Positions 17,559-55,814 of a stretch of DNA of 64,000 nt are shown here, one piece after another (position 1 is the stretch's first letter; every line of letters begins with the position of its first letter). Both the position numbers and the translations under genes were made by a program. The notes beneath the pieces are model-generated. The model was given only the letters and a program-made list of their open reading frames with translations. It had not been told where the DNA came from and did no database searches. This DNA is from a virus (Duplodnaviria > Caudoviricetes). The DNA is taken from positions 1-64,000 of the IMG/VR virus record IMGVR_UViG_3300032216_001981; one strand, given 5' to 3'.

Positions 17559-17587
17559 ATTGTATAGGGTTATTTGGCGGTTGTCAA
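17559..17587 (-). promoter_or_regulatory. sigma70-type promoter, leaderless architecture
   Basis: TTGACA-17-TACAAT, then 6 nt to ATG 17552. Confidence 0.72.
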
Positions 17588-18049
17588 GTGTTTTGCTGAT
17601 TCGGCTGCCACTACTCGTTTGCGTAGACTACTGCTACTAAACGAATGATCTCTGCCGTTGAATATGCAACGAATGTTTCTTTGAGCACAGGCTTGATCAC
17701 CACTGAAGGGTTTGCCCTCGTATTCCACACCCAACACACGTACATCAATTGGCAGAATCAACAATAGATCAATGAGATCTTGTTCGGTTTGATATACCAC
17801 TACTTCATCCACATATCTACAGGCGGCCAACTGTATCTGTCGTTCCACTACACTTTGTATGGGCGAATTTTTAGTGTCAGGTCTATCTATAGTGGGATCT
17901 GTTTGTAGTCCACAGATCAAGTAATCGCAGTGATTTCTAGCTTCGGCCAACATGGCGATGTGGCCGGCATGCAACATATCAAAGGCACTGAATGTAATGC
18001 CAATGATTTTACCTTGTTCTTTGAGAGTTCTTACTTTATTGAATATCAT
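17570..18049 (-). CDS. HxGH cytidylyltransferase (glycerol-3-phosphate CTase/TagD-like)
   Basis: FSAFDMLHAGH, LICGLQTD, RYVDEV, SSSSLRKR. Confidence 0.85.
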   Translation of the reverse strand: MIFNKVRTLKEQGKIIGITFSAFDMLHAGHIAMLAEARNHCDYLICGLQTDPTIDRPDTKNSPIQSVVERQIQLAACRYVDEVVVYQTEQDLIDLLLILPIDVRVLGVEYEGKPFSGDQACAQRNIRCIFNGRDHSFSSSSLRKRVVAAESAKHLTTAK

Positions 18050-21019: not shown

Positions 21020-21292
21020 TCAATCTTCTTCAAGCCTATATCCGCAGTTTGGAGGAATTGCTCCCATTCTCAACATTCTTTCGTCGGGATAACGTCTACA
21101 GCCCGGCCAACGATTGTCGTAGTTACGGCACTTGAGTGTCACAGTGGGGTCAGTGTTGTAGTATTGGCACCACTCCACTGTGTAGTTGTTGGCATCCGTG
21201 TAAACTCGAAATTGGCAACAGGCACTGCCACATCCTGCATCAGGAGTACAACTGCCCTGTACCACTGGATTGATCCAGATGATGTCGGTCAT
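21020..21292 (-). CDS. YkgJ-like Cys-cluster (Zn/Fe-S) protein
   Basis: CTPDAGCGSACC...C...C..YDNRWPGCRRYP; ATG 21292 couples (TAATG) to the upstream stop. Confidence 0.6.
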   Translation of the reverse strand: MTDIIWINPVVQGSCTPDAGCGSACCQFRVYTDANNYTVEWCQYYNTDPTVTLKCRNYDNRWPGCRRYPDERMLRMGAIPPNCGYRLEED

Positions 21293-31790: not shown

Positions 31791-32035
31791 TGTATTCTCT
31801 TGTTAATAATTTTAATTCCGCCGTATGTAACTAGAACAAGTGTTAGTACCTTTGCAATCAATTGCCATTCTATGTTATTATCGGCTTCTATGTCGATTTT
31901 TGCAATCGGAGTATCCACGTTTACCTTTAATTCTATGGGAGCAGGTCGTGCGGCTTTTTCTTGACCGTATAAAAACATTACTGTTGCTACGCCAATCATT
32001 AAACTGATCCAAATTGATATTATTAATTTTTTCAT
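31787..32035 (-). CDS. small two-TM membrane protein between nrdA and nrdB
   Basis: Two hydrophobic segments; ATGA overlaps at both ends. Confidence 0.65.
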   Translation of the reverse strand: MKKLIISIWISLMIGVATVMFLYGQEKAARPAPIELKVNVDTPIAKIDIEADNNIEWQLIAKVLTLVLVTYGGIKIINKRIQ

Positions 32036-34814: not shown

Positions 34815-35357
34815 TTATTTTATGTAATATACTTGATACAACATAGTAGTTGCAGTGGTTGTGGTGTAATATAAATTGGCTTGAGTGGTATTGCCATTGG
34901 CCGAGAATACAATATCTGTTACTGCTGTTTGGTTGTATTCTTCATCGTAAGAGACTGTACTGCTTGTAGCGTATCTTGACAAGTCAATTGCCCCACTGCG
35001 TTGTACAGATCCTTGGTTCAGTGTGTATTTAATTATTGCATTGTTGGAGGTGATTGAAGTAATTTGCCCCGACGAAGTAGAAGGTAACGATATATTTACA
35101 GTTTTAGGTAATTGCCCGGTTAATTGATTTTGTATTTGAGTCAGTGCGTCTTGAATGGCTGTTAAATTGGCACCCGAACCCTGTGGATAAATTAAAGTTT
35201 TGCCGCCGGGCACAGGTGCACCCTCGCTGGCAGTGCCATTGCCGATCCACAACTCCATGGTGTCGTTGCTCCAACCAAGTTCGCCCGAGGCTAAATTTGG
35301 AAGATCCTGGCTGAGACCTCTACGTATCTGTATTTTTGAAATTTGTGTTATTGCCAT
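34815..35357 (-). CDS. virion structural protein (Mtd-N-like N-terminus)
   Basis: ISKIQIRRG...LASGELGWSNDTMELWIGNG; TAAATA at 35390-35385. Confidence 0.65.
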   Translation of the reverse strand: MAITQISKIQIRRGLSQDLPNLASGELGWSNDTMELWIGNGTASEGAPVPGGKTLIYPQGSGANLTAIQDALTQIQNQLTGQLPKTVNISLPSTSSGQITSITSNNAIIKYTLNQGSVQRSGAIDLSRYATSSTVSYDEEYNQTAVTDIVFSANGNTTQANLYYTTTTATTMLYQVYYIK

Positions 35358-39714: not shown

Positions 39715-40035
39715 TTAAACCCTAAAACTTTCTCCGCAACCGCAACGGTCACGTTCTTGTGGATTATTAAATTCAAACCCTTCGTTGAGACCTTGTTTTG
39801 CCCAATCTATTTCCATACCGTTTAGATAAACTAAATCTTTAGGAGCACACCACACTGTGGCGTCATTGCTGTTAAATTGCAAGTGTTCGGGCCGCGGCGA
39901 ATCTAAATATTCTAACACATAGGCCATGCCCGAGCATCCAGTGGTTCTTACACCCACAAGAATGCCTAGTCCTTGGCCACGTTGAGAAATGTTTTGATTA
40001 ATTTTTTTAGCGGCTTGAGGTGTGACATGTATCAT
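39715..40035 (-). CDS. iscA: IscA/HesB Fe-S cluster assembly protein
   Basis: GCSGMAY, F.FNNP, CGCGESF. Confidence 0.93.
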   Translation of the reverse strand: MIHVTPQAAKKINQNISQRGQGLGILVGVRTTGCSGMAYVLEYLDSPRPEHLQFNSNDATVWCAPKDLVYLNGMEIDWAKQGLNEGFEFNNPQERDRCGCGESFRV

Positions 40036-40044
40036 GAATATGTT

Positions 40045-40311
40045 TTATTTTTTTATTTTTTTAAAAATATCAAAAAAATCTGTTTTGTTTTGTTGCTTTT
40101 GTTCAAGAGCTTTTTTCTCAGATTCTTTTTTTGATAACTCGTCAAGATCTCGCTTCAGTGTAGCATGCAGTATTGAGTCTGACGTTGATGCTAATTTTTC
40201 CTGTTGAAGAACTTTCAGTGTTCGTTCACAGCGGATACAAGTGACATGTCCGTTTTTACGGCGATCGACGGGGAGTAATTCTAAACAATTTGTGCAGACT
40301 TTAGCAGGCAT
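40045..40311 (-). CDS. Zn-ribbon (CxxC...CxxC) basic protein
   Basis: CTNC and CIRC; Lys-rich tail. Confidence 0.55.
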   Translation of the reverse strand: MPAKVCTNCLELLPVDRRKNGHVTCIRCERTLKVLQQEKLASTSDSILHATLKRDLDELSKKESEKKALEQKQQNKTDFFDIFKKIKK

Positions 40312-40357
40312 GATTTTACCGAATCCAATTTAATTTACTATTGTGATTATAGCAAAT

Positions 40358-40777
40358 TTAGCTGCGTTTTCCTAGAGCACGGTTAGCCATACTGGAAACT
40401 GTTTTTTCTGGAGGGGTTTTTACAGCTTCGCCTGCTTCACCGGGCACTTCTACATCTGTGTCGACTGGGTTGATGAACACGTATTTTTGCCCGTTTTCAT
40501 CATCTTTGATATTGCCAACTATACTTTTTACAGCTTCGTTGTGTTGTTTGGCTTTTTGCAGTGTTTCCAATGTGAATGCTTCGGCACCGGGCTTGCTTCG
40601 TACTAAATTGATCAATGCTTCCACAGAGATTTTTGGCACTGTGGCATGATCACTACTGAATTGCAATTCTCTCAGTGTGTCAATCAATGCATCGTTGGCG
40701 GCATGATCAGCATCGTCTTCTACGAAACCGGCCAATCCGTCTTCGTTCAACGGGCGAGCAAATTCACTGAATCTCAT
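40358..40777 (-). CDS. probable internal head protein
   Basis: MRFSEFARPLNED N-terminus; acidic. Confidence 0.6.
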   Translation of the reverse strand: MRFSEFARPLNEDGLAGFVEDDADHAANDALIDTLRELQFSSDHATVPKISVEALINLVRSKPGAEAFTLETLQKAKQHNEAVKSIVGNIKDDENGQKYVFINPVDTDVEVPGEAGEAVKTPPEKTVSSMANRALGKRS

Positions 40778-41475
40778 TAACGCTTTTCTCTGCCGAGTTC
40801 TTCTGGACCGCCCACAGCTGCATCGGTGCCATCAAATCCATCGCCCGCTGCGGCAGGAGCTTCTGGGGCAGGGGCCATACCCGAGTCAGGCGACGGAGCA
40901 CCCATGCCAGTGTCGGCACCCATTCCGCCCATGCTCATGTCGGGAACAGCTTCTCCGGTCAATGCTCTAGCAGCACCATCGGCCTGTTCACGACCGGTAC
41001 TGAGTTGTTGCCATAATTGTTGTAACAAAGGAGTAACTGTGCCTTTGAAACTTTCGGCCTGCTGTTCACCAATTTGATCACGGATTGTGTCTAACAAAGC
41101 CGGTAACTGCTCGTTTTGCATTTTACCAATTTTTTCCAACATGTCCTGTATCGAGTCAACCATGTCTTTGGCAGCCAATGTAGCTTCGGCCTTGGCCATT
41201 TCGCTTTCACGCAACAGTACATGGCGATTTTCCACCATCCAACGATTTAAACTTTCGCGAACCATCAACAGTTCCATGTACTTGGGATTCTTTTCAGCTG
41301 TGTGTACACCGTGTGTACGCTTGACAGCATTCAAGCTTTCTGTGATACCGGTGGCCAATTGATAGGCCTTTTTAAATGTTAAATTGTCGTAGTCGATTCG
41401 AAATCCAAATCTGCTTTCAACTACTTGATTAATTCGGTTAGCTCTTGGCTGGTTGCTCATTTCTGATAATTTCAT
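40777..41475 (-). CDS. probable prohead core/internal protein
   Basis: MKLSEM start; LLRESE; helical with a low-complexity tail; TAAATA at 41509-41504. Confidence 0.6.
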   Translation of the reverse strand: MKLSEMSNQPRANRINQVVESRFGFRIDYDNLTFKKAYQLATGITESLNAVKRTHGVHTAEKNPKYMELLMVRESLNRWMVENRHVLLRESEMAKAEATLAAKDMVDSIQDMLEKIGKMQNEQLPALLDTIRDQIGEQQAESFKGTVTPLLQQLWQQLSTGREQADGAARALTGEAVPDMSMGGMGADTGMGAPSPDSGMAPAPEAPAAAGDGFDGTDAAVGGPEELGREKR

Positions 41476-41536
41476 GGTTTATTTTTTTCCCAAACTTATG
41501 TAGTATTTAGTCGGTTAGTGTAAATCTTTCATTCTT

Positions 41537-42070
41537 TTACTGTTGCCAAATTTTTAAGTTTTTGGCCTGTGCAACATGTTTATTTAACTCTGTTTGTGAT
41601 ATCTGCAACCTTAATCTTGCATCTGATAGTCTAGCACTCCATATACTTATGCTGTCCAGCTTCAAGTTTTTTCTTGCACGAGCTAGACTGGCCTCGTAGT
41701 GTGTGACATCGTTTTTTAATCGCAACACTTCAGTGTCGGTGTCGCGTATTCTTGTGGCTATAACGCCAAGTCTCACATGCTCGCATAAACAATAAAAAAT
41801 AGCCGATTGTTTGCTGTCAAATATGTGTATTTTATCTTGATTTCTTGTGGTCAATTCCCAATAGCCCAAGTTAGGCACAATATGAAAATTACCAATGTTG
41901 TAGCCGCCGTGTGGCAAGGGCCATATCAGTGGAACATTTTTATTGTTGTTTAAACGAGAAAATTCTCTTTGTGTCCAAGCAGATATGTACTGAGTTGCTG
42001 CTGCTATGGCTTGATCAACTTGTTGTTTTGTAGGTTCTACTTTGTGGTTTTTGATAGGTAATACGTCCAT
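41537..42070 (-). CDS. hypothetical protein (start uncertain)
   Basis: 177-aa ORF with a C-terminal coiled coil. Confidence 0.65.
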   Translation of the reverse strand: MDVLPIKNHKVEPTKQQVDQAIAAATQYISAWTQREFSRLNNNKNVPLIWPLPHGGYNIGNFHIVPNLGYWELTTRNQDKIHIFDSKQSAIFYCLCEHVRLGVIATRIRDTDTEVLRLKNDVTHYEASLARARKNLKLDSISIWSARLSDARLRLQISQTELNKHVAQAKNLKIWQQ

Positions 42071-42245
42071 TTTCTTGAATTCTCAATAACACATCTTTGT
42101 TAACCAAACTGTTGGCAATTACCTGCTGTCTTGGGTCCAATGCAGATTTGTGCAACACTGCGTTGTCTGCAAATTGATCCAACAGTTCTGCCTCTTCGTT
42201 GGTTACGGGCAGACTAATGTTATTTAAGAGTTCTACTATACGCAT
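42015..42245 (-). CDS. hypothetical protein
   Basis: MRIVELL...PVTNEE...LVNKDVL.R. Confidence 0.7.
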   Translation of the reverse strand: MRIVELLNNISLPVTNEEAELLDQFADNAVLHKSALDPRQQVIANSLVNKDVLLRIQENGRITYQKPQSRTYKTTS

Positions 42246-42248
42246 AAA

Positions 42249-42509
42249 TTATTTAAGTGCCGAATGAACCAGTACACCTAATATAGCAGTAAGCAAGATA
42301 CCAAACACACTGGTGCCGATGGTGATGATGGTTTTTAAATTATCACTGTTACCAGTACGAATGCTGTCTTTGATGTCCACTATATGGCCTTCTAATTTAT
42401 CCATGCGTGTTTCAAGATTGGAAAGTTTTGTATCCAAGTTACTATACCTTTCAGCACACAGTTCTACATGGGCTTCAAGGCTCTTTTTTTCTATATCTGT
42501 TGAGGACAT
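42249..42509 (-). CDS. coiled-coil protein with a C-terminal TM
   Basis: LEAHVELCAERY coiled coil, then a hydrophobic C-terminus. Confidence 0.7.
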   Translation of the reverse strand: MSSTDIEKKSLEAHVELCAERYSNLDTKLSNLETRMDKLEGHIVDIKDSIRTGNSDNLKTIITIGTSVFGILLTAILGVLVHSALK

Positions 42510-42596
42510 AATTGTCTCTTCGCTTTCTTCAGGTTAAGCGATGTGTTGATGGTGCCTAAATGTGCCTTAATAATGAGCCTTAATGTTGCCATGACA

Positions 42597-43034
42597 TCAA
42601 TACATATTTATGTGTCGGTAGCCGGATTTAAAGTAAATGTTTTTGATACTGCCGTAGGGATAGAAAATAGGCAACATGAATCTTGCTGTCTCGTCCAATC
42701 CCTGTATCACAGGAACCTGTTCAAACGATTCCTCAAGCAATGCAGTGGGGCCAAGATCAGAGGCAAAAGCATTGACGTGTTCAATGGCAAATAACCACAC
42801 CCACACACGATGTTCTCCAGCAAAGAAATCTCCAAATTCCCAGTGTTCCACCGGCATTACCCAAGAGTAAGGTTCCTGTAGTTCCACTGGTTGTGCTCTA
42901 AGTCCAATCACCTGTAGTACTGTTTCCCAGTTGCGTTGTTGATCACGACGGTGCTGATCATGGCCGCGAACATCTCCGGTGGCTGTGATGTCTACCAAGG
43001 TAAATCCTGTGAATTTTTCCAGTTGTGTTTGCAT
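42597..43034 (-). CDS. hypothetical protein
   Basis: Start reassigned to ATG 43034 (TAAGTA 5 nt upstream); TLVDITATG..R..RDQQRNWETVLQVIGLR. Confidence 0.65.
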   Translation of the reverse strand: MQTQLEKFTGFTLVDITATGDVRGHDQHRRDQQRNWETVLQVIGLRAQPVELQEPYSWVMPVEHWEFGDFFAGEHRVWVWLFAIEHVNAFASDLGPTALLEESFEQVPVIQGLDETARFMLPIFYPYGSIKNIYFKSGYRHINMY

Positions 43035-43068
43035 ACAACTACTTATAGAGTTTAAAATTTGCAACCAC

Positions 43069-43093
43069 AAAAAAAGCACCGAAGTGCTTTTTT
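43069..43093 (-). terminator. UUCG-tetraloop intrinsic terminator (potentially bidirectional)
   Basis: Minus strand GCAC-TTCG-GTGC-TTTTTTT; the plus strand is also followed by T6. Confidence 0.85.
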
Positions 43094-43118
43094 GTTATAG
43101 CGGTTAAACTATCGGTTA

Positions 43119-43541
43119 TTACGCTAGTTTGAAACCACCAGTACTTGAAACTGCTGAAACTGTACCAACGTAGCAATTACCAGTAGCACCGATGTTACCA
43201 CCAGTTGCTGCTGTCCACTGACCAGAACCAGTTTGGATAGCTGTTTGTAAACCAGCATCAGTCCAGCTTGAACGCTCAACTAAAACGCTCATCTGTTGTG
43301 ATGTATCAACTTGATACGCTAAAACTGAAGCATTACCTTCAACTTGACGTAAAATTGTTTCAACTGCGCCACCTACTGCTAATTCAGCCGCTAAGTTACC
43401 GTTGAAACCTAAAGTGATTTTATATGCTTGTAATGGTGCTGCAACACCTGTGTTGATGATGGTTGCATTGGCAAATGAACGACCTGTGTCAACTTGTCTT
43501 GTGCCGGCTGAGTCGCCGTTAACTCTTGTAAAAACTGCCAT
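43119..43541 (-). CDS. abundant virion structural protein (putative)
   Basis: Own TAAATA (43591-43586), AAGGAG SD and UUCG terminator; MAVFTRVNG. Confidence 0.6.
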   Translation of the reverse strand: MAVFTRVNGDSAGTRQVDTGRSFANATIINTGVAAPLQAYKITLGFNGNLAAELAVGGAVETILRQVEGNASVLAYQVDTSQQMSVLVERSSWTDAGLQTAIQTGSGQWTAATGGNIGATGNCYVGTVSAVSSTGGFKLA

Positions 43542-43608
43542 GTTAATTCTCCTTGTTGTTAATGAGCTGTTACGCTACATGCAAATATTTATGATAGAAG
43601 ATAAAATT

Positions 43609-44586
43609 TTACAGTTTTAATGCTTTGGACAATTTATGTTTCAACTGCTGTTGGTATTGTTCCTTGAGTTGCGTGTTCCAGCCCTGTTGTCTTGCTTGTT
43701 CCCAAATACTTGCACGTTGTTCAAAAAATGTATTTTTAATTTTATCCAAAGAAGTGAGTTTTTTATCGCCCTTGGCAGTGCCTACCTCGCCCGACTTAAC
43801 TGTGATCATAGACGCAAATACTCCCAGTATTCTATGTTTACTGCGTGGATTCCTGACAGTTTTTTGTGCCTGTAGTACTAGTTGATCAAAGCTTTGGTTT
43901 AAATCGTATTGATATAGCAGTCGTTGTAGATCACTGTAATTTTGTGAATACCAAACAACTTCTCTACCGGCCTGTTTGACAGTGCCGGGTTCGTATGTAA
44001 CTTTTCTCAACTCCAATCTAACACTGGAGAGGTTAAACTCGTATTCTTGATCGGGTTCAGTCAATGCTGGTGCTTTGATGCTCAGCCGTTTAAACAACAC
44101 CTGTGGGTCTGTTTCAATTGTGGCAATTTTAACCAATGCCAACACTAGGCCTTGCTTTTCTGCCGGCATGTCGAGAAAGGACTGTTTAAATTCAGCTTCC
44201 ACTGGATCCTTTGCAATGATGTTGTCAATCTGTACCGAGTAACCCAAACGATCATCGTGATAACGGACAGTGACTATCTCTCCTGAGTTGTAGCTACGTT
44301 TGCCCGCATGCTTGACACTGGTAAAAGGTACTATAGTAGTTTCTGGATGTGCGTGGAAAAATGCCTGTAGTTTCTTTTTAGTAACTGCTTTGTCGTCATT
44401 ACTCTGTATGTGGGCTATAAGATCTATGTCGCCAAAATCCTGTTTGTTTGGATCGCTGTTGTAGCTACCAGATTTTCTTAAGTCAACAAAACCAGGAAAT
44501 TTAGCGATAAGGGGCTTGTATGATGCGGCAAAAGCATCAAAGTCTGCACGACTACGTATTCTTTCTGCACCCGCTACTCCGCTCAT
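43609..44586 (-). CDS. pol-beta-superfamily nucleotidyltransferase-like protein
   Basis: SGSYNSDPNKQDFGDIDL (GS..DxD) plus VQIDNI (third Asp). Confidence 0.65.
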   Translation of the reverse strand: MSGVAGAERIRSRADFDAFAASYKPLIAKFPGFVDLRKSGSYNSDPNKQDFGDIDLIAHIQSNDDKAVTKKKLQAFFHAHPETTIVPFTSVKHAGKRSYNSGEIVTVRYHDDRLGYSVQIDNIIAKDPVEAEFKQSFLDMPAEKQGLVLALVKIATIETDPQVLFKRLSIKAPALTEPDQEYEFNLSSVRLELRKVTYEPGTVKQAGREVVWYSQNYSDLQRLLYQYDLNQSFDQLVLQAQKTVRNPRSKHRILGVFASMITVKSGEVGTAKGDKKLTSLDKIKNTFFEQRASIWEQARQQGWNTQLKEQYQQQLKHKLSKALKL

Positions 44587-46085
44587 GTCGTTTCCGTTCT
44601 ATATTTTGCTAATGCAGATGTATTCGGTAAGAATTTGCCAGAAAGACCTAGTGTTTTTTGACGCTTGATCCATTCGTTTTGAAGATCATCTGGGATATCT
44701 GCTCGTGTAGAATCTAAAATCTTAAAGTAGATGTTGAGCAGACTGTTGTATTGTTGTGTGTTCATACGCATCTTGAATAGCCTATGTAGTTTATAGTAGT
44801 CCTCGGTATCATCTCTGTTTATCTCAAAACCTAATCTATCACCTAATATTTTTAGAGCCTTGTCGGGTATATGAGCCACTACGTCTCTGGACTCCTTGTC
44901 CTTTACTCCGCTGACGTGATTGAAACTGAGGTTAGCTACTTGGAAAGCCGATAGCATCAGCTGTGTTCTATGTAGTCCCTTGACATTAGAGTAATGTGCA
45001 TACGGAGCCGAGTGATAACTGAACAGGAGCCATTCTAAATTTCCCACCATCCAATCTATCTGTACACCAGTACCTACATATTTACCAGCGGGATTTACTT
45101 GTGGATAGACTCCAAATATATTGCCATCGTTGACCTTTTTCTCGTCACAGTAGAGAGTAGGAGCATTGGCATTGATGTATCTTACTAATTCTTGGAGAAA
45201 TGCTCTCATGAGAATCTGTTGCGGAGTTGCCGTCTTGGCCTTTGATTTAAATATTTCGAATTGCTTGGTCACAGCGTCCGGATCAAGTCCCCACTCTGTG
45301 ATACTTTTTGGAGTTATTTCTTGATCTACGATAGAGTGTGAGCTGACAGCTAGATCAATATCTCCTGCTTCTTTTGGTCCTAAATCCATCCATGGCTCAT
45401 CTGGGGTATTTCTAAAGACCCAGAAGTGCCCTGTATCTTCGGTCTTGAATACATCTTTGTTAGCTTGGCCTTTATATTCTAGGGGAAGTTCCTTGCGAGA
45501 TGGTACCAACCCTTTAACTTCTAGACTACTAGATCCTACAGAATGGAAATGTTGCCTATCAAATATGGCAGCCTTTTGTGGGAAAATACTTTTCAATTCA
45601 TTAAAATAGGCAGTGAGTGTAGGTTCAATATTTTCTAAAGATATCTTACCGGTCCTTCCTTTGAAGACATTACCGCCTTCCATGATGGGTTCCCATGCCA
45701 TGGGCTTGGCACCGCGGGCAATGGGCTTGAATCCATGTCTTTTATATAGTTTGGTCAGTGAGGCCGAACTTATTCTGCCGTGACTCCAAGGCATTAGTGT
45801 CAATCTAATACCCGATGCCTGTGCCTGGCGTTGCAGTTCCTGTATGGCTCTACTGCCCACACCTTGACGCTGTTCGGGTCCGGCCATGATCCAGTCTATT
45901 TCCACTGTGCGAGCATCGGCACCGGGTTTGAGTTTGAATGCAGCAAAAGTTTGTTCTTCTCCCTCACCCCACACCATGACTCGGTCTGCTTGTCCATAGG
46001 GCCACTTGGGATATTGACTGTATACTTGATCTATCCACTGCTGTGCTAAACCAGCAGATTCAACAATGACTTCGCGTATTTTCAT
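44583..46085 (-). CDS. GNAT acetyltransferase - nucleotidyltransferase fusion protein
   Basis: N-domain EIDWIMAGPEQRQGVGSRAI...LTKLYKRHGF (GNAT motifs A/B); C-domain EGGNVF...VGS...GDIDLAV...VQIDWM. Confidence 0.68.
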   Translation of the reverse strand: MKIREVIVESAGLAQQWIDQVYSQYPKWPYGQADRVMVWGEGEEQTFAAFKLKPGADARTVEIDWIMAGPEQRQGVGSRAIQELQRQAQASGIRLTLMPWSHGRISSASLTKLYKRHGFKPIARGAKPMAWEPIMEGGNVFKGRTGKISLENIEPTLTAYFNELKSIFPQKAAIFDRQHFHSVGSSSLEVKGLVPSRKELPLEYKGQANKDVFKTEDTGHFWVFRNTPDEPWMDLGPKEAGDIDLAVSSHSIVDQEITPKSITEWGLDPDAVTKQFEIFKSKAKTATPQQILMRAFLQELVRYINANAPTLYCDEKKVNDGNIFGVYPQVNPAGKYVGTGVQIDWMVGNLEWLLFSYHSAPYAHYSNVKGLHRTQLMLSAFQVANLSFNHVSGVKDKESRDVVAHIPDKALKILGDRLGFEINRDDTEDYYKLHRLFKMRMNTQQYNSLLNIYFKILDSTRADIPDDLQNEWIKRQKTLGLSGKFLPNTSALAKYRTETT

Positions 46086-47503
46086 TTTGTTTTATCTAGT
46101 AACAATGCTGAAAAATCTTTTGATGATTCCGCCAATGCCGGAGTTCCATTTGTTTGTTGATTTTGTGCTCGCTTATTGGCATAATACTGTTTCATATTGG
46201 GATCACTGCTTGATAATTTGTAATTTACTTTATTAACTGGCGTTGTGGAGGTTGTACCGACATCCTTGAAACGTTGTGTTGGTAGTATTGCTCCTGGAGT
46301 TTTGCGATCAGGGCTTGTTACTGTGGCTGTACCTTGGGGATTTTTAAACGGAGGGGCAGTTACACTAGGAGTTGAGCTAGTGGGTACATTGTATGCAGTT
46401 TTCGCTTTAGTTGAGGCTGGCGCCGGTGCAACAGTCGGTGCCGCCGGAGGGGTTGTCTGAACCGGTGCAACAGTCGGTGCCGCCGGAGCATTTGCATCCT
46501 TGGGAAATCTGTCATCCACTGGGGCAGTTGCAGCCGGTGCTGTAGTAGCAGTTGTTGGATTGGCAGTGGCCTGTCCACGTGCCACTGCACGACGCCCAAC
46601 ATAGTCAGGACTGGAAGGAGTAGCCTGTGATTGTGCCTGTTGATCCAACAACGATGCCATGTTCGCATCAACCTGTTTATTATCGGGACCAAACCATTGA
46701 TTTCCAAGTTTTTTGTAAGGTGTTGTTTTTCCAGATCGGTCTTTGATTGATACAGAATTCATACCAGTGGGCTGGTCGGCCACGTTACCGACGCCAGCAT
46801 TGGCTCCCCGTTTAACTGCATTGGCGATTCCTGATGCTACATTGCCGACAGCATTGCCAATTTTAGTGCCTAGACTGTTGGTACTTTGTGGTGTTGTTGC
46901 CGGAGCTTGAGTTGCTTGAGCTTGGGTTTGAGCTTGGGCTCCTCTTGCTTGAGCCAATTGTGCTTGCAAACCGCTGATGGCAGTTTTATGTTGATCAATT
47001 TGATTTTCAATTGATGCAGCATCTACCCCTGCACTCGATGCCGAAGTGTTAGATGCAGTTGCGGTGGGTTGTGCAACAGGATCTTGTTTAAAAACTTTAC
47101 CTAATTTATCTGCTGGCTCCCCACCTACAGCGTTGGCTCCGGTGTTGAATCCCTTTGAGGCGGCACGAGCAACACCGGTGGTGGCACCTCCGGCCACAGC
47201 ACCAGCTCCACCGGCGACATCTCCGGCCACTGTTGCGGCTGCTTTTCCTAGGCCTTTTGCTCCGCTTTTAACAGCATTGTAAGCACCAGCCACTGGTCTA
47301 GCCACCATTTGATTGCCAAGTGCTTTGCCAGCACCACCAATGGCACTGGCGGCACCGGCCACAGCATCGCCAGTTTTGTTTACGTTCTTAGTAAACTTTT
47401 GAGCACCCTTGGTTATTTTTTTAGCACCTTTTTGGATATCATTAAATCCAAACTCATCTAACTGCTGTTCGTTTACAATGTCATTAATCTTCACGATTTT
47501 CAC
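46082..47503 (-). CDS. low-complexity Ala/Gly/Thr/Pro-rich probable internal head protein
   Basis: GTG start at 47503 or 47494 (MKINDIVNEQQLDE); ALAES near the C-terminus. Confidence 0.65.
   Translation of the reverse strand: MKIVKINDIVNEQQLDEFGFNDIQKGAKKITKGAQKFTKNVNKTGDAVAGAASAIGGAGKALGNQMVARPVAGAYNAVKSGAKGLGKAAATVAGDVAGGAGAVAGGATTGVARAASKGFNTGANAVGGEPADKLGKVFKQDPVAQPTATASNTSASSAGVDAASIENQIDQHKTAISGLQAQLAQARGAQAQTQAQATQAPATTPQSTNSLGTKIGNAVGNVASGIANAVKRGANAGVGNVADQPTGMNSVSIKDRSGKTTPYKKLGNQWFGPDNKQVDANMASLLDQQAQSQATPSSPDYVGRRAVARGQATANPTTATTAPAATAPVDDRFPKDANAPAAPTVAPVQTTPPAAPTVAPAPASTKAKTAYNVPTSSTPSVTAPPFKNPQGTATVTSPDRKTPGAILPTQRFKDVGTTSTTPVNKVNYKLSSSDPNMKQYYANKRAQNQQTNGTPALAESSKDFSALLLDKTK
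46423..46488. repeat. 27-bp direct repeat (APPAAPTVAP)
   Basis: CCGGTGCAACAGTCGGTGCCGCCGGAG at 46423-46449 and 46462-46488. Confidence 0.9.
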
Positions 47504-47741
47504 CTTTTAGTCGTCTTACACCACGGATAAATTTATTGGGATCTTGACTGCGGATACTGTTTAACAAGCGATTTTCCAACTGCTGTGCTGTTTCATCGTC
47601 GTAGTTTTCTCGTATGTAATTGATTAGATTCACAGCACCTGCAATAATGTTACTGGCACGTGATTCTACAAGATTTTCTCGATCACGATGCACCAACATG
47701 CTGTCTAGTTCATCTAAGATACTACGGGATCTCTTTTGCAA
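47484..47741 (-). CDS. hypothetical helical protein
   Basis: Likely TTG start at 47741 after GGAG (MQKRSRSILDELD). Confidence 0.7.
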   Translation of the reverse strand: MQKRSRSILDELDSMLVHRDRENLVESRASNIIAGAVNLINYIRENYDDETAQQLENRLLNSIRSQDPNKFIRGVRRLKGENRED

Positions 47742-47775
47742 GACTTGCTCCAATTTATGTTATATTTATGTGGAG

Positions 47776-49218
47776 TTAATCCGTTTTGGCTTTTAACCCA
47801 GCCAACATGCTTTTGAGTCTACTGCTGTCCACTGTGGCTGAGGGTGGTGGACCAGCATCCTTGTCAATGCTAAATCCCGACTTGGCTTTAACATCAAATT
47901 GATTAACTGTGGTGGTGGTTTTGATTTGATCCATGATTGAGGCCATTCTAGGTGGTCCGCCGCCACCTGTGTAACTTTCTTGTCCTTCTTCTCCCGGATC
48001 AGTGATACGCATGGTTTCTATGTTGTATTCTAAATCAATTTTATGTCCAACACCGGTTGAGCTACGCGACTTCATACACTGAATTTGATAACGCCCACGC
48101 TCTCGCATGGCTCGGCTGGTAAAGATACCAAACACGTTATCAGCAGTGTTGATCTTTGAAATACCTCCTGCAATGTGACTGTGGTCAAACTCTATTTCTT
48201 CCACTGCACTTCTATTCAACTGACTTGCTGTCACAAACAACACATTGAGTTCTTTGGCTAGATTACGCAGTTCTTCCGCCACATACTTGTCTTTGATGAA
48301 CTGGTCATTGGGATTCACCTTGACCGATACCGGCATCACCAAGTCCAAGTAGTCGCACATGACAAAGTCCACTTTATTACCGGTTTGTATTTGATACTCT
48401 TTGATGAAACTGCGAATGTCATTCACTGTGCTCTGTGCTGGCAGGGCTTTGATTCTATAGGCTCCGGCTTTTTTGCCCACCATCTTGACCTTGAGTGTAG
48501 TGGTGTCTATGTCCTTGCGTATGTCTTTTGTACCTGTGCTGGTCAACATGGCATCGGTTCTCAAAGCACACAGTTCTTCTGACAGTTCCAAACTGATGTA
48601 CACACCTGATAAGCCGGCCTGCAACCACGACAGTGCTATGTTCATCATGACCAAGCTCTTGCCCGAACCCGAACCTCCAGCAAATATGTTTAGTTCACCT
48701 CTGCTCATGCCACCATAGAGAATCTTGTCCATGGTGGGCCATCCGGTTGACACTTGTCCGCCCGAGTTGTAATACCTATCAATACGTGACTTGGGATCTG
48801 AAAAGTAGTCTGTGCCCAAGTCTTTGGTTAAACTTATTTGCACTGCATCTTTGATCAATTTCTCCACAGGATCGTAGTCGCCCTTTTCCAACAGGTCTGC
48901 TGATTTTAAAATGGCACGTTCCAGTTCCATCCTGCGTGTAAAACCTTCAAATTCCATCATGAACCAGTCGTGATGTCCCGCCACTGTGTCAGGTAAGGGT
49001 TTTAATTCCACTCCGGTCACTGCGTGAATCTGTTCAAGTGTGGGCAATGTTTTATAATCGTTTGAGTGTGTTCTAACGAACTCGGCCACAGCACGTAGGC
49101 TTCGATCAAAGTTTTCAGGGTTATAAATGTTTTGTACTCTGACGTAACTCTGTGCATCGGTCAACATCATTTCCAAAAACAATCGTTGTATCTCGGGGCT
49201 GTATTCTTTTGTTGTCAT
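47776..49218 (-). CDS. replicative DnaB/gp41-like helicase
   Basis: Walker A GGSGSGKS, YISLEL, CDYLD, TASQLNR, KSRSS. Confidence 0.92.
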   Translation of the reverse strand: MTTKEYSPEIQRLFLEMMLTDAQSYVRVQNIYNPENFDRSLRAVAEFVRTHSNDYKTLPTLEQIHAVTGVELKPLPDTVAGHHDWFMMEFEGFTRRMELERAILKSADLLEKGDYDPVEKLIKDAVQISLTKDLGTDYFSDPKSRIDRYYNSGGQVSTGWPTMDKILYGGMSRGELNIFAGGSGSGKSLVMMNIALSWLQAGLSGVYISLELSEELCALRTDAMLTSTGTKDIRKDIDTTTLKVKMVGKKAGAYRIKALPAQSTVNDIRSFIKEYQIQTGNKVDFVMCDYLDLVMPVSVKVNPNDQFIKDKYVAEELRNLAKELNVLFVTASQLNRSAVEEIEFDHSHIAGGISKINTADNVFGIFTSRAMRERGRYQIQCMKSRSSTGVGHKIDLEYNIETMRITDPGEEGQESYTGGGGPPRMASIMDQIKTTTTVNQFDVKAKSGFSIDKDAGPPPSATVDSSRLKSMLAGLKAKTD

Positions 49219-49222
49219 ATTG

Positions 49223-50254
49223 TTAATTATATAATCTTTTCTTTAGTAATTCAATTTTTAATCTACTGGTTTGTTTGCCTGCTAATATTGATTTCAATGC
49301 AAATAACTTGCCATACTGTTGTACTGCTGCACCAACATCTTTACATTCGCGTTGCCATTCGGGATAGCTCACTGCCCATCCATACTCCAATGCAGCATCA
49401 ACCAAGCGTGAGCCTGCACGGTCAGCATCCGGAACTACTATAACTTCACGTGCCAAGCTGTCAATGATGTCGGCCTGTTGCTCACTGACTTCATTGCCCA
49501 ACACTGCCACACCATCAATGGCCATGGCATCAAACGGTCCTTCACACACTATGACAAACTTACTCCCAGCCTGCTGTTGATCTACATTGAACACATAGCC
49601 GGGTTCATGACTGTTGTGGTATTTGGGTCGAACATCATCTGATACTGCACGGGCAGTATAGCCAATGATCTCGTTTTGCCAAGTGAACGGGATTACGACC
49701 CGACGATGTAGGTTGTTGTGTGTAGCCGGAGTCCACATTAAATTGTATTTAATCAAGTCAATCCGTCTACTGGCACTGTACATCACAGCCGCATGAAACT
49801 CCTTTGGCACCGCAGAATCTTTCAGTGTGTACCACGATTCCCAGGCTGTGAAGTTCTGTGCCGATTCTGGCAAAGGTCTTGGCTTAAAGTTGATGGGTTC
49901 TGCCGATTCCACCTTCACCAGTTGTTCGGGTGCTGTCAATTCTCTAATACGTATGGCATCAATCACCAAGCGTTTTACAGTATTTTCATCAGCACCCAAC
50001 CAAGTTAATAATTTTCTAAACTTGTAAGTTAAATGCCGGCCGGGTTGGTAAGATGCTCGAAAATTGCAGTTAAAACAGGAATATGATACAGCACCATCGG
50101 GATTGACAATGACTCCGCCACGACCTCTAGTGTCGGCACTTTCACCCGAATGTGGGCAACAAACAGCATTGAATGACGTCCACCCAGTGGTGGCATTGGT
50201 TCTACGTCGAGCGGGCAACAACTGAGTTAGGGCGAGTACAATAGAATTTGACAT
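49223..50254 (-). CDS. DNA primase (gp61-like; Zn-binding + TOPRIM)
   Basis: CCPH...CFNC Zn finger; IPF...GYTAR; VCEGPFDA; VPDADRAG. Confidence 0.9.
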   Translation of the reverse strand: MSNSIVLALTQLLPARRRTNATTGWTSFNAVCCPHSGESADTRGRGGVIVNPDGAVSYSCFNCNFRASYQPGRHLTYKFRKLLTWLGADENTVKRLVIDAIRIRELTAPEQLVKVESAEPINFKPRPLPESAQNFTAWESWYTLKDSAVPKEFHAAVMYSASRRIDLIKYNLMWTPATHNNLHRRVVIPFTWQNEIIGYTARAVSDDVRPKYHNSHEPGYVFNVDQQQAGSKFVIVCEGPFDAMAIDGVAVLGNEVSEQQADIIDSLAREVIVVPDADRAGSRLVDAALEYGWAVSYPEWQRECKDVGAAVQQYGKLFALKSILAGKQTSRLKIELLKKRLYN

Positions 50255-50262
50255 TGTGTTAC

Positions 50263-50291
50263 AGTATACGCTACTGCTGTCACAATGTCAA
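50263..50291 (-). promoter_or_regulatory. sigma70-type promoter for primase
   Basis: TTGACA-17-TATACT, 8 nt before ATG 50254. Confidence 0.72.
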
Positions 50292-50322
50292 AAGTTTTGA
50301 TAACAATACTGCTGTTATTGGA

Positions 50323-51015
50323 TTATAACGGAACTTCTTCCCACATGATAGACGAAGTGGCTGAATGAGCAGCAGGAGTAGTAGTTGCCATCAAAGTCAA
50401 CACAGCGTTGGGCGGAACAATGATGTGTCCGTCAAAGTTTTCTACAAAACCCATCAATTGAGTTTGCATACCAGCAGCAGTTGCAACAAATGATGCGTTG
50501 GTTGCAGAACCACCGCCCAATGCAGAACCAAATGCCACTGCCAAAGTACCAGTCATACCAGTTAGTGCTGTATTAAGTGGAATATAACGTCCCTGTGCAC
50601 CAGAAGCTACAAGAGTTTTCATGTTAAGTGGTTGAGCACCAGTTGAGATTGGACCTGCCAGAGCCGATACCATCCAAACATACGGACCAGCACCAGTGGC
50701 TGTCAATGCAGTCATGGTCACTGCCAATGTGGCCTGTAACAACACACAGTTTACAGTGGAACCCGACGGGTTATATAAAGTAGCCAGTGGAGTTGCAGTG
50801 GCACCAGTTGTGGCTGAGGTAAAAGTTGCCGCGTTGATCGCAGTTGTTGTTGTACCGCCTTTGTATAAAGAACCACGATATGCTTGTTCATAAAATCTAC
50901 CGTGTAGCTCAGAAACAATAAGGTCACCCAATTGTCCTGCTCTAGCCGGTGCTTGTAAACCAGCTGAAATACTTGTTGTGGTAGCGATTGGACCTACCTG
51001 ATTTTGAATTAACAT
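50323..51015 (-). CDS. virion structural protein (putative)
   Basis: Thr/Ala/Gly-rich; TATAAATA at 51074-51067 and AAGGAG SD. Confidence 0.6.
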   Translation of the reverse strand: MLIQNQVGPIATTTSISAGLQAPARAGQLGDLIVSELHGRFYEQAYRGSLYKGGTTTTAINAATFTSATTGATATPLATLYNPSGSTVNCVLLQATLAVTMTALTATGAGPYVWMVSALAGPISTGAQPLNMKTLVASGAQGRYIPLNTALTGMTGTLAVAFGSALGGGSATNASFVATAAGMQTQLMGFVENFDGHIIVPPNAVLTLMATTTPAAHSATSSIMWEEVPL

Positions 51016-52787: not shown

Positions 52788-55700
52788 TTATGCTATTAAA
52801 CTTTGGGCTAGAATGATGCGTTGTATGTCAGTTGCTGTTTGACTGACACCGAATGGTACTGTGAATTGACTGGTTACCGAAGCATTTCCAGCTGAAATGT
52901 TACCGGTGTATGTGGGTAAAAACTGTGCAACTTGAGTGTTGCCATAACTGCCAGCACCCACTGTTGATAAAATATTAACGCCGTTGGCAAATAGGTAGTT
53001 GGGTGCAACCACATTGCCCGACACAGTGGCATTACCTGTAGCGGCGTTTAATGTTAGTAATGTGGCGTCAAAGTAAGTGTTTCGTGTTCCGTAAATGGCC
53101 AAGTTGTTGACATCAACGGCTGCTATCTTGTACAGTGTATTACTGGCACCCAAATAAGTGAGCACCACAGGGCCATCACTTTGAATGGAAGGTGCTGCAA
53201 ATACGCCACCGGAGCTGAGTGTAGCAACATATGATCCAGTGTTCAACTGCGATAGAGTTTTGTTTGTTATAGATGTTTGTATGCCGGTTATGGTTGAATC
53301 TGTTGGCAAATATGCTGCTACATTGGTGTTGCTGTAAGTTCCTGGCTGTGGATTGGCTGTCAAGTAGCTGGCAACATTGCTGTTACCGTAACTGCCGCCG
53401 GCAGTTAAGTAAGTTAAATTGGCGTAGGTGTAAAAACTGCCCAAGTTGGCATTGATACTGGTGACATTGCTTTGTAAGTTGCCCAACCAAACGTTCTGTC
53501 CAGCCTGTGTTAGGTTGGCGTAAACATAATAAGATCCAATGTTGGCATTGGTTGATTGTATTTGACCAGCTTGAGCAGCAGCATTGGCATTGGCATAGAT
53601 GTAGTATGAACCAAGGTTGGCATTGATACTGGTGACATTGCTTTGTAAGTTAGATAACCAGATGTTGGTGGCTATGTAATAACTGCCCACATTGGCCGAC
53701 AATGCAGATATAGTGGCATTGGCAGCATTGATATTGTTGTTGGAGTAGGTGTTGGCCGAAATGATCTTGAGATCTAAATTGGTCAGTGTGGTTTCTTGAT
53801 TTCGTGCATTGGCAGTCCAAGCAGTAGTGACAGCATTGATTGAGGTATTGACTGTAACAATGTTGTTGTCTACATAATTTTTCATGCCAATGTTGGCATT
53901 GACAGTGGCGTTCAATGAGTTTTGTACATTGGCTGCCATGGCAGTGTTTAAATCATTGACATAACCAACCACCGCGGTGTTGGCTGTGACAATTTGATTT
54001 GCTAAACTGCTTACATTGGCAAATAAGTCAAGTCCCTGTACCACAACTGTGTTGGCCACTGTGACTGTGCCAGAGACTCCAACGCCACCGGCCACTGTTA
54101 ATGCACCCGAGGTACTACTGTTGCTGATGTTGGTAGAAGTGATACGAACTATGTTGCTTGAGGTAATTCGCATCACTTCGTTGTTGGCGTTACCGCCACC
54201 AACAACAAATAAAATATCGTTGGCTGTTTGTGTGTTTATAATTAAGTTACCGCCACCGGTCACAGCATTACCAAACACGTTGATATAAGCGTCGTTTGGG
54301 CGGGCAATGGCATAGCCTGGATAATTGTACGTGCTACTGCCTATACCAATATCGATAAAAGTATCGCTGGCATTACCGTTGTCGGCTGTTATAATAAGAT
54401 CGCTGGATGCCCGTGCGCCAGAATTAATATTTTGCATATTAATTCCACCGTAATCATTGTAATTTGTAGACACTTGAACTGCAATCTGTGGCTGAACATT
54501 GTAGCCAGTGGAGATTCCAGCATACAAGGCACCAAATCCGTTAGTATCACCAAAGAACTGCCCCGAATTTCCTGTAACTGTTTGATTAGTTACATTACCA
54601 ATAAAATTAATATTTCCGGTTACTGTTAAGTTGCCTGATATTGATACATCACCGGCTGCGGTCAATGTGTTGAGTACACCAAGTTGATTGATATTGGGTT
54701 GATTGGCTGTGGTTATAGTACCCGCAATCAATCCGGTGTAACTAGGCAGGTATGCTGCTACATTGGCGTTGGAATATCTAGCAGCAGTGACCGAAGCCAA
54801 TATAACATTACTGTAGGATAATTCTTTGGTAACAGTGTTGTACACCACCATTATAGTGTTGCCAGCGTCGTAGTAGTTTCTTACAGGATTTACAAAAAAT
54901 CCAGATACATTTGCACTAAGTCCTGTTGCATTGGCATTTAATATAATACTGTTGGCAACTTGTGTGGTTGGTCCATTGCTGCCGCCAATTGAAATGGCAT
55001 TGTTGCCTTGGCTGGTATAGCCGGTGTTCTGTCCAATTGCAATTGAGTTAGTGCCTTGGTTATTGGTACCAGAATTGTAACCTATGGCAATGGAATATCC
55101 ACTTTGATTGATTTGTCCAGAGAAAGTGCCAATGGCCAAATCATAACTGCCCTGTGATGGAGTAAATCCCGGTCCTGCACCTCCGGCATAGTAGCCCCAG
55201 GCCAAAGAACCGTCGGGGGTATCATAAAAACTCGATCCTGAAGGCAGTGTCAGTACACCTGTGGGATTGAAATTCCACAATGCACTACTGGCCCCGATCT
55301 GTGCTGACGTGCCATCAACTCCAACAAAGTTAGCACCGCTGGTGTTGGCCACCCAGGCTTGATCTCCCACTAGAGTAATTATATTTGGCAAGGCCCCAAC
55401 ACCGGGATAGCCGGGCTGTAGTTGTGTACCATTGGAAAGATTTACATTACCGGAACTGGCTAATACAAGATTTCCACTGCCATTGATTAAACTGTTAAAC
55501 GAAAGTGGTGCACCGTTGGCATACAAATAACTGTTGCTTCGCACATTGCCGGCTCGGACTGTAGCAGTGGTTAAGATATTGCTGGTGACATTACCGCTGG
55601 CAAGATACACAGCTACTTGTGTGTTACCGTACGTGCCACCACCTCCACCACCGCTGATTAAATGCCCACCCGGTGTAACACCGTCGTGAATACGAATACT

Positions 55701-55814
55701 GTTTAAATCAGTATCCATCGTTGGTTCGCCCAAGGGACCTGTATAGGCTAAACTACGGGCAGTGGTACCGCGTTTAAGCAGTACTTGGGTTACTTGTACA
55801 TTGGCAACAGTCAT
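52788..55814 (-). CDS. long tail-fibre-like protein
   Basis: LLKRGT...GEPTMDTDLNSIRIHDGVTPGG (Mtd-N-like), repeated Y(G/S)N.NVA.YL modules and an Asn-rich coiled coil. Confidence 0.8.
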   Translation of the reverse strand: MTVANVQVTQVLLKRGTTARSLAYTGPLGEPTMDTDLNSIRIHDGVTPGGHLISGGGGGGTYGNTQVAVYLASGNVTSNILTTATVRAGNVRSNSYLYANGAPLSFNSLINGSGNLVLASSGNVNLSNGTQLQPGYPGVGALPNIITLVGDQAWVANTSGANFVGVDGTSAQIGASSALWNFNPTGVLTLPSGSSFYDTPDGSLAWGYYAGGAGPGFTPSQGSYDLAIGTFSGQINQSGYSIAIGYNSGTNNQGTNSIAIGQNTGYTSQGNNAISIGGSNGPTTQVANSIILNANATGLSANVSGFFVNPVRNYYDAGNTIMVVYNTVTKELSYSNVILASVTAARYSNANVAAYLPSYTGLIAGTITTANQPNINQLGVLNTLTAAGDVSISGNLTVTGNINFIGNVTNQTVTGNSGQFFGDTNGFGALYAGISTGYNVQPQIAVQVSTNYNDYGGINMQNINSGARASSDLIITADNGNASDTFIDIGIGSSTYNYPGYAIARPNDAYINVFGNAVTGGGNLIINTQTANDILFVVGGGNANNEVMRITSSNIVRITSTNISNSSTSGALTVAGGVGVSGTVTVANTVVVQGLDLFANVSSLANQIVTANTAVVGYVNDLNTAMAANVQNSLNATVNANIGMKNYVDNNIVTVNTSINAVTTAWTANARNQETTLTNLDLKIISANTYSNNNINAANATISALSANVGSYYIATNIWLSNLQSNVTSINANLGSYYIYANANAAAQAGQIQSTNANIGSYYVYANLTQAGQNVWLGNLQSNVTSINANLGSFYTYANLTYLTAGGSYGNSNVASYLTANPQPGTYSNTNVAAYLPTDSTITGIQTSITNKTLSQLNTGSYVATLSSGGVFAAPSIQSDGPVVLTYLGASNTLYKIAAVDVNNLAIYGTRNTYFDATLLTLNAATGNATVSGNVVAPNYLFANGVNILSTVGAGSYGNTQVAQFLPTYTGNISAGNASVTSQFTVPFGVSQTATDIQRIILAQSLIA
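53445..53651. repeat. 36-bp direct repeat in the tail-fibre gene
   Basis: GTTGGCATTGATACTGGTGACATTGCTTTGTAAGTT at 53445-53480 and 53616-53651. Confidence 0.88.

Follow-up and report, generated by a model that had tools for sequence, protein, structure and literature searches.

The closest described counterparts of the gene pair reported here are the internal proteins IPI-IPIII of bacteriophage T4 and its enzyme Alt, which is delivered together with the DNA (PMC9026906, PMC3012670). The pair, open reading frames (ORFs) A and B at positions 43609 to 46085, lies in virus record IMGVR_UViG_3300032216_001981; the window analysed is the first 64 kb of this 82.7-kb linear record. ORF A encodes a predicted polyprotein in which a GNAT acetyltransferase and a minimal family-X-polymerase-like nucleotidyltransferase (mini-PolX) follow a T4-type leader, and ORF B encodes a second predicted mini-PolX. 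The source phage is a giant T4-related water phage, known here as a fragment: CheckV puts the completeness of the record at ~15%, which implies a genome of several hundred kilobases.

The T4 capsid-targeting sequence (CTS) reads MKTYQEFIAE (PMC8442874). The 10 N-terminal residues of IPIII are enough to direct a protein to the capsid; residues 4 and 7 matter for this targeting, residues 8 and 10 for processing, and the head protease gp21 cleaves after L/I-X-E (PMC9026906). With IPI-IPIII and Alt the locus shares a short leader whose positions 4 and 7 are hydrophobic or aromatic and which ends in L/I-X-E (PMC9026906), and diverse cargo behind a conserved leader; a gp21-type protease was found in relatives. 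Delivery of an enzyme with the DNA, as for Alt, is the principle that we propose for it as well. Unlike in the T4 proteins, the cargo joins several modules into a polyprotein that has a predicted site in its interior, it consists of a GNAT and two mini-PolX enzymes instead of an ADP-ribosyltransferase or a small inhibitor, and the genes are hosted by PA5oct-like or other giant phages and not by T-even phages; processing and packaging are predicted.

A second precedent is provided by the polyvalent proteins (Iyer et al. 2017, PMC5512222), which, like A, join disparate enzyme domains in one polypeptide. GNATs and Pol-beta nucleotidyltransferases are among their domain classes, and they are predicted to be packaged, injected and cut into effectors (PMC5512222). 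Protein A shows the multi-activity character of this class, as a GNAT plus a Pol-beta-fold transferase, and lacks its zincin-like hub. Release of the effectors is assigned to embedded zincin-like peptidases in polyvalent proteins, whereas head-protease motifs stand at the module boundaries here; their Pol-beta nucleotidyltransferases are minimal and restricted to conjugative elements, whereas those described below have a PolX palm and thumb; and the GNAT family found here, which is phage-restricted, differs from theirs (PMC5512222). ORFs A and B contain no HExxH module; judged from sequence alone, HExxH-containing segments occur only in some relatives, namely in gp088 of Flavobacterium phage immuto and in P0025.

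A sequence-only reading of this locus had proposed a capsid-packaged, injected enzyme pair and had stated that no described system resembled it. The latter statement was too strong, since the T4 internal proteins with Alt and the polyvalent proteins (PMC5512222) are close precedents; literature searches found no description of this PolX-like pair. Taken as a whole, that interpretation is partly supported. We think it probable that A is a leader-loaded precursor cleaved by a gp21-type protease, that B is coupled to it, and that the set is ejected with the DNA.

Predicted fold and catalytic residues of the two transferases

Both ORFs proved to be genuine open frames, and the ATGA overlap that had been claimed for their junction was confirmed in the sequence (Table 1). 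The stop codon of a 473-amino-acid (aa) ORF upstream overlaps the start of ORF A likewise as ATGA; with such overlaps at both junctions, the 473-aa ORF, A and B look translationally coupled.

The GS, GDID and QID motifs pointed out by the sequence-only reading are present in both transferases. In alignments of 39 homologues for A and 33 for B, GS184-185, D242, D244 and D344 of A are invariant, as are G40, D53, D55 and D121 of B, where S41 is conserved at >=90%. Between GS and GDIDL, A carries a lineage-specific insertion of ~55 aa.

The fold of both transferases was established by structure prediction only. The AlphaFold2 model of B reached a predicted local distance difference test (pLDDT) score of 91 and a predicted template modelling score of 0.83, and that of A exceeded a pLDDT of 90 across most of residues 140-190 and 240-500. 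In VIA, a structure search independent of Foldseek, the best nine matches of B were all family X polymerases (Z 10.3-11.9; 163-183 residues, palm plus thumb), with Pol beta, TdT, Pol lambda, Leishmania Pol beta, Pol X of African swine fever virus (ASFV), Thermus PolX and Pol mu at the top. The best nine matches of A residues 141-431 were likewise all family X polymerases (Z 7.3-8.8; 157-210 residues), and Foldseek concurred, returning Pol beta, mu and lambda for A and Pol lambda for B. By these models, A and B are minimal family-X-polymerase-like enzymes in which a palm with hG[GS] and three catalytic carboxylates is followed by a thumb subdomain. The earlier label of pol-beta-type nucleotidyltransferases was too generic. 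Neither the 8-kDa lyase domain nor the helix-hairpin-helix fingers domain of family X was found: the matched chains start at about residue 142 of Pol beta, at the palm, and upstream of the palm there is nothing in B and only the GNAT in A.

The same minimal layout of palm and C-terminal subdomain, without 8-kDa lyase and fingers, is known from ASFV Pol X (5hr9), to whose 176-residue chain B aligns over 163 residues (Z 11.0) and A over 165 (Z 8.7). Unlike ASFV Pol X, with which they share 9-12% identity, A and B are paired, have extra C-terminal helical regions and, in A, the insertion mentioned above; no partner AP endonuclease or ligase was identified in the window, and polymerase activity of A and B is a prediction from the models.

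Sequence comparison alone did not reveal this relationship. Pfam and PHROG scans gave no match for the transferase part of A or for B, sub-threshold DNA_pol_B_palm matches of 17-21 bits appeared in two homologues, and PDB sequence searches with A and B returned chance matches only. BLASTP detected no similarity between A and B, and profile-profile comparison of the two gave 25% probability, around GS..GDIDL; a common ancestry is thus suggested by the fold and not shown by sequence. On the predicted structures, B is a second, very divergent enzyme of the same fold as A.

A packaged and injected pair need not consist of polymerases. The palm of B also matches TUTases, poly(A) polymerases, CD-NTases, OAS1 and MenT1 (Z 7-9.6), and A and B might transfer nucleotides to proteins or small molecules, or they might synthesize or capture signalling nucleotides in a CD-NTase/OAS-like or MenT-like manner, in the service of counter-defence or host shut-off. 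Among further homologues some are A-B fusions, and others add an NMNAT/PPAT-like HIGH domain or, in one case, an FMN reductase; these frequent fusions to HIGH-type transferases make nucleotide-cofactor or protein-nucleotidylation chemistry an alternative, and the Pol-beta nucleotidyltransferases of polyvalent proteins are predicted protein modifiers (PMC5512222). The best matches of both A and B are nevertheless exclusively family X polymerases, and these extend over palm and thumb, whereas those of other Pol-beta-fold families are confined to ~100-125 palm residues. This difference favours nucleotide addition at 3' ends, and, as a weak lead, a DUF6267 protein with a KWDG tetrapeptide in the closest relative (see below) would fit nucleic-acid end chemistry. 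We regard a non-polymerase function as rather doubtful.

The GNAT module of ORF A

The N-terminal GNAT domain proposed by the sequence-only reading was borne out. PF00583 scored 21.3 bits on full ORF A and 23.3 bits on residues 1-200, above the curated cut-off of 20.7, and 11 of 11 close homologues of this part of A matched GNAT models (best E 8.5e-11). In the acetyl-CoA motif A, QRQGVGS, which conforms to R/Q-x-x-G-x-G/A, R73, G75 and G77 are invariant across homologues, as are Y114, G118 and F119 of the LYKRHGF block.

The anti-CRISPR mini-GNAT AcrVA5 (6IUF), a small protein acetyltransferase carried by phage, inactivates a defence protein (PMC11021501). It was the single PDB match of the GNAT family profile (E 2.6e-4; 64 aligned residues), with a weak similarity centred on the acetyl-CoA-binding region. 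To our knowledge, AcrVA5 is not known as a packaged protein.

An exhaustive search recovered the GNAT module in 259 representative clusters. Among 149 representatives it stands alone in 5 and occupies an N-terminal position in 60, an internal one in 54 and a C-terminal one in 30; its partner modules include dCMP/cytidine deaminases, a second GNAT, a GH19 lysozyme-like module, HD_4, a HIGH nucleotidyltransferase and DUF6934. A CTS-like N-terminus was present in 95 of 143 GNAT-bearing proteins. The GNAT is a shuffled cargo module, and its fusion to A in the window, with no other GNAT-GGNVF fusion among the 149 representatives, appears to be a recent lineage-specific combination.

Head-protease motifs at leaders and module junctions

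The two sites singled out by the sequence-only reading, MKIREVIVE/S and PIME/GGNVF (a slash marks the predicted cut), are located as it had described, and both E9 and E136 fit the L/I-X-E specificity of gp21 (PMC9026906). They stand at module boundaries, and the motif is kept at the corresponding places in homologues. The leader of ORF A resembles the T4 CTS in its length of about 10 residues, its hydrophobic targeting positions and its L/I-X-E end, as in T4-type internal head proteins. Leaders of the same 9-aa type directly precede A homologues (MRIRELLVE, MRIIELLTE), and stand-alone relatives of the GNAT have leaders of their own (MKIREVITE/, MRINEVLTE/).

Leader statistics were collected from 118 A homologues with the GGNVF motif, 112 of which carry leaders of 4 to ~300 aa. 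Immediately before GGNVF, 109 of these 112 leaders end in [LIVF]xE and 100 in [LI]xE, against a background of 0.5-1%, and the [LIVF]xE end is kept in 47 of 49 distinct leader classes. Typical examples are MRIIELLTE, MKIRELLSFITE, MITFKEFITE and MKTFAQYLAE; the last two, at 10 aa, are close to the T4 CTS, having an aromatic residue at both 4 and 7, I or L at position 8 and E at position 10.

The same signature recurs between modules. In all five A-B fusions examined the junction reads [LIV]xE/SG[VS][AT]GA, which equals the start of free B after its Met, and 11 B homologues begin M[IL]xE/SGV. At the end of the GNAT, [LIVM]xE lies within 11 residues past the conserved Trp in 104 of 124 cases, compared with a background of 15%. 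In the model of A, residues 117-138 have a pLDDT below 50, which fits a flexible linker holding PIME/GGNVF. A head-protease motif at every module boundary indicates that the set is probably packed in the capsid and injected with the DNA.

Leader-like starts are also seen among the neighbours. Between window positions 40358 and 47503, five of ~12 consecutive minus-strand ORFs begin M-[KR]-x-x-[ED/K]-hydrophobic and have a [LIV]xE site; the five leaders are MRFSEFARPLNE, MKLSEMSNQ..VVE, MRIVELLNN.., MKIREVIVE and MKIVKINDIVNE. Under a strict form of the leader pattern, 4 of the 117 ORFs of the 82.7-kb record qualify, all within 40358-46085.

Synteny with the PA5oct virion-protein block

The A/B block lies directly downstream of genes for a primase and a DnaB-type helicase. 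These two proteins and the 89-aa, 160-aa and 232-aa proteins correspond, in the same order, to gp261, gp260, gp259, gp250 and gp247 of Pseudomonas phage PA5oct. Of the 13 PA5oct proteins from gp259 to gp247, ten are annotated as virion proteins found with tandem mass spectrometry after electrospray ionization (ESI-MS/MS), and an eleventh, gp259, is annotated as a virion structural protein; the PA5oct study identified 93 virion-associated proteins (PMC7318152). The check by synteny proposed with the sequence-only reading thus came out in its favour, the block being collinear with a virion-protein block. Its description of the surroundings as a block of head-type proteins held in part: PHROGs annotated as virion structural match three neighbours of A and B in the window, and the block adjoins the primase and helicase genes.

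Within this syntenic block, PA5oct gp253 is a distant homologue of the A family (hhalign probability 96%; hmmsearch 35 bits) and is annotated as a structural protein found by ESI-MS/MS. It carries MSGNAFG, LGSTGKFPVTGDIDLAID and YQVDFMHGEVNWLKLYYF; its likeness to A lies in MSGNAFG, LGS..GDIDLAID and QVDFM..WLK..KG.HR and in its place downstream of primase and helicase. Unlike A, gp253 is a leaderless, very divergent protein of 237 aa. PA5oct gp246, also annotated as a mass-spectrometry find, starts (M)KIKDILVE/S, which is almost the leader of A.

No homologue of B or of the GNAT was detectable in the PA5oct block. PA5oct gp256 and gp255 (L039:5025-7385) sit roughly at the A/B position and have no mass-spectrometry annotation; neither had a Pfam match or detectable similarity to A or B. 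The former contains TEKIDGYY, with a KxDG-like tetrapeptide.

A Peptidase_S77 protease of the gp21 type was found in all four complete or nearly complete genomes that carry A-family genes, namely the two most complete metagenomic relatives (one at 72%, the other at 100% and with terminal repeats), PA5oct and immuto.

Several observations weigh against the proposed reading of A and B. Neither a protease nor a capsid gene was found in the 82.7-kb record at its ~15% completeness, and the virion assignment of the PA5oct proteins rests on the annotation of that record. B lacks a leader, six of the 118 A homologues, immuto gp089 included, start without a real one (five begin MGGNVF, one MEGGNVF), and [LI]xE is a short motif that is also present inside folded domains. 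The VIA Z scores of A, at 7.3-8.8, are moderate, and the GNAT part of the A model is poor; the latter follows from the exclusion of GNAT homologues from the A alignment, in which they misaligned when added. Positions 40000-50500 contain no T4 late promoter motif (TATAAATA). Together with the adjoining primase and helicase genes and a sigma-70-like site upstream of them, this absence would also fit a cytoplasmic role in replication or repair.

If so, A and B would be made along with the primase and helicase and remain unpackaged, and their N-terminal peptides might be unrelated features, for example folding or regulatory propeptides removed by some Glu-specific protease. Besides the genes immediately upstream, the missing late motif and the leaderless forms of A, this explanation can draw on immuto, where the pair stands beside a primase, an exonuclease and a deoxyribonucleotidase. 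In PA5oct, however, the primase-helicase region runs straight into the mass-spectrometry virion block with its A-type homologue; the leaders differ in length and sequence yet keep the gp21 motif and the CTS-like pattern; and the same motif recurs at the module boundaries of fusion proteins. We consider a purely cytoplasmic role unlikely.

The location among virion proteins, next to a low-complexity 473-aa protein, could also mean that A and B are mainly structural or scaffolding proteins of the capsid interior whose enzyme folds are relics, and for many proteins inside giant-phage capsids no activity is known (PMC9026906). In both transferase families, however, GS and the three carboxylates are invariant or nearly so across hundreds of homologues, and the acetyl-CoA-binding residues of the GNAT are conserved too, which makes this explanation highly improbable.

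The sigma-70-like site just mentioned is a near-consensus promoter (TTGACA-17-TATACT) at window positions 50263-50291, upstream of the primase gene, and transcription of the entire string of primase, helicase and cargo genes could start from it. In generic scans, neither promoters nor terminators exceeded shuffled expectation.

Distribution and gene linkage of A and B homologues

Searches detected 1765 homologues of the transferase module of A and at least 500 of B, nearly all of them unnamed proteins and many on contigs of 100-360 kb. In gene contexts drawn from IMG/VR loci, B is found downstream of A in 19 of 34 loci with A; the two genes are adjacent in 15 of these and fused in L005. A blastn search of the region against cultured phages gave no match.

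Flavobacterium phage immuto was the only cultured carrier found, with gp089 as its A homologue. Its gp088 (L037:7908-10631), of 907 aa, comprises a B-type transferase, an NMNAT-like HIGH domain (GGFKPPHLAH) and two HExxH-containing segments; it is annotated only as NMN adenylyltransferase, and the junction after its B module reads QTLAE/A.

A HIGH-type partner of A and B was sought in the record, and the only candidate was a PF01467 gene at 17570..18049, 26 kb distant. It bears no relation to the HIGH domains with which B is fused in relatives and was rejected as a partner.

A putative variable cargo slot

In eight related loci the order of helicase, 89-aa, GNAT-containing, 140-aa, 160-aa, 177-aa and 232-aa genes is kept, and in none of the eight does A or B stand beside the GNAT. 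In the closest relative, L042, the flanking genes share 80-93% identity with those of the window, and a homologue of the 473-aa gene has the same position. Between this homologue and that of the 140-aa gene (43119..43541 in the window), L042 carries three other cargo genes (L042:605-3947), all with [LI]xE-ending leaders (Table 1). With different leader-bearing cargo in so close a relative, the A/B position behaves like a hypervariable cargo locus.

A broader reading of this pattern, which we put forward tentatively and rate at a little short of even, is that a hypervariable cargo slot for shuffled enzyme cassettes is maintained within a conserved block of virion-protein genes in giant T4-related and PA5oct-like phages, with a leader in front and head-protease sites delimiting the cassettes. 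The cassettes would comprise mini-PolX enzymes, AcrVA5-like GNATs, HIGH-type transferases, the DUF6267 KWDG protein, deaminases and HD hydrolases. The head protease would double as a polyprotein-maturation enzyme, and each phage would inject its own kit for genome repair or counter-defence, the GNAT-PolX polyprotein and second PolX of the window being one such kit.

Gene layout and neighbouring genes

Table 1. Coordinates of ORFs A and B, their parts and neighbouring genes in the window, with the cargo genes of the related locus L042
Feature	Position	Strand	Remarks
ORF A	44583..46085	minus	500 aa, genuine open frame
ORF A leader, residues 1-9 MKIREVIVE	46059..46085	minus	ends I7-V8-E9, predicted first cleavage site
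Mini-GNAT acetyltransferase module, residues 10-136	45678..46058	minus	PF00583 match
Predicted second cleavage site I134-M135-E136	45678..45686	minus	end of GNAT module, junction PIME/GGNVF
Nucleotidyltransferase A, residues 137-500	44586..45677	minus	starts with invariant GGNVF; family-X-polymerase-like (predicted fold)
ATGA overlap of ORF A stop and ORF B start	44583..44586	minus	read from the sequence
ORF B	43609..44586	minus	325 aa, starts MSGVAGAE, genuine open frame
Nucleotidyltransferase B	43609..44586	minus	G40-S41, D53/D55, D121; C-terminal helical extension; family-X-polymerase-like (predicted fold)
473-aa low-complexity protein (A/G/T/P/Q-rich)	46082..47503	minus	leader MKIVKINDIVNE..LDE; upstream of A
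89-aa protein	47484..47753	minus	between helicase gene and cargo genes; PA5oct gp259 homologue
232-aa gene	40777..41475		far end of the block syntenic with PA5oct
L042 slot, 287-aa A-like transferase			MILLE/GG...GGNVF
L042 slot, 463-aa protein			GNAT joined via PIQE/GG to a different GDIDL/VQIDF transferase (Pol-beta-type)
L042 slot, 364-aa DUF6267 protein			leader MILLEFITMLAE/G; KWDG tetrapeptide reminiscent of ligase motif I

The 473-aa protein probably belongs to the same virion-cargo operon as A. It has a CTS-like start and a conserved C-terminal tail, AESSKDFSALLL[DN]KTK, after L-A-E, matches no family, and might be a protein of the internal-body or core type. The 89-aa protein matches phrog_11854 (E 8.9e-16) and its PA5oct counterpart with 47% identity by tblastn.

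Tail-fibre-type N-termini (for example ..LLKRGTTA..GEP..DTD.. and ..GDLFYDEATGLLKIGDG) were noted on three proteins, at 52788-55814, 21292-22767 and 34815-35357, so that structural genes are scattered among replication and metabolic genes. Auxiliary metabolic genes include those for a radical-SAM protein (856-2163), a UDP-glucose dehydrogenase-like protein (5585-6820), a cytidylyltransferase-like HIGH enzyme (17570-18049) and class I ribonucleotide reductase subunits (30690-34353). In the part of the record beyond the window (G000:C1:65735-67659), adjacent ORFs have GroEL-like (MAAKDVQFGSDSR..) and GroES-like (MMNLKPLSDRVVV..) N-termini, which by themselves suggest a phage-encoded chaperonin pair.

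Proposed mechanism and implications

From the folds, conserved catalytic residues, motif statistics, synteny and the protease of relatives, we infer cleavage, packaging and ejection of the set, an association of A with B, and the substrates named below. In the mechanism that we favour, the A precursor consists of a 9-residue T4-type leader, a mini-GNAT, a flexible linker ending in I-M-E, and a mini-PolX whose mature N-terminus would be GGNVF. It would enter the prohead core via its leader, and B would enter probably by binding A. The gp21-type head protease would then cut after E9 and E136, leaving a free acetyltransferase and a free transferase in the capsid. At infection the enzymes would exit with the DNA and act before any phage gene is expressed.

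The activities can be proposed with less confidence. For the mini-PolX pair, the most likely activity would be nucleotide addition at the 3' ends of nucleic acids, with gap filling in the incoming genome of 300-550 kb, or processing of its ends, as examples. The GNAT would most likely acetylate a host protein, for which a defence protein is the candidate target by analogy with AcrVA5.

If this mechanism is true, the T4 internal-protein principle, in which a leader imports and the head protease trims, extends to multi-enzyme precursors of environmental giant phages, and a large unannotated family, with more than 1700 sequences for A and >=500 for B, consists of virion-delivered polymerase-like enzymes. 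A portable tag for packaging into giant phages could also be derived from the conserved leader with its cut site. Proteins of this family would work within the first seconds of infection, at the time of greatest exposure of the phage genome to host nucleases and abortive-infection systems, which would make them good candidates for new counter-defence or genome-repair activities.

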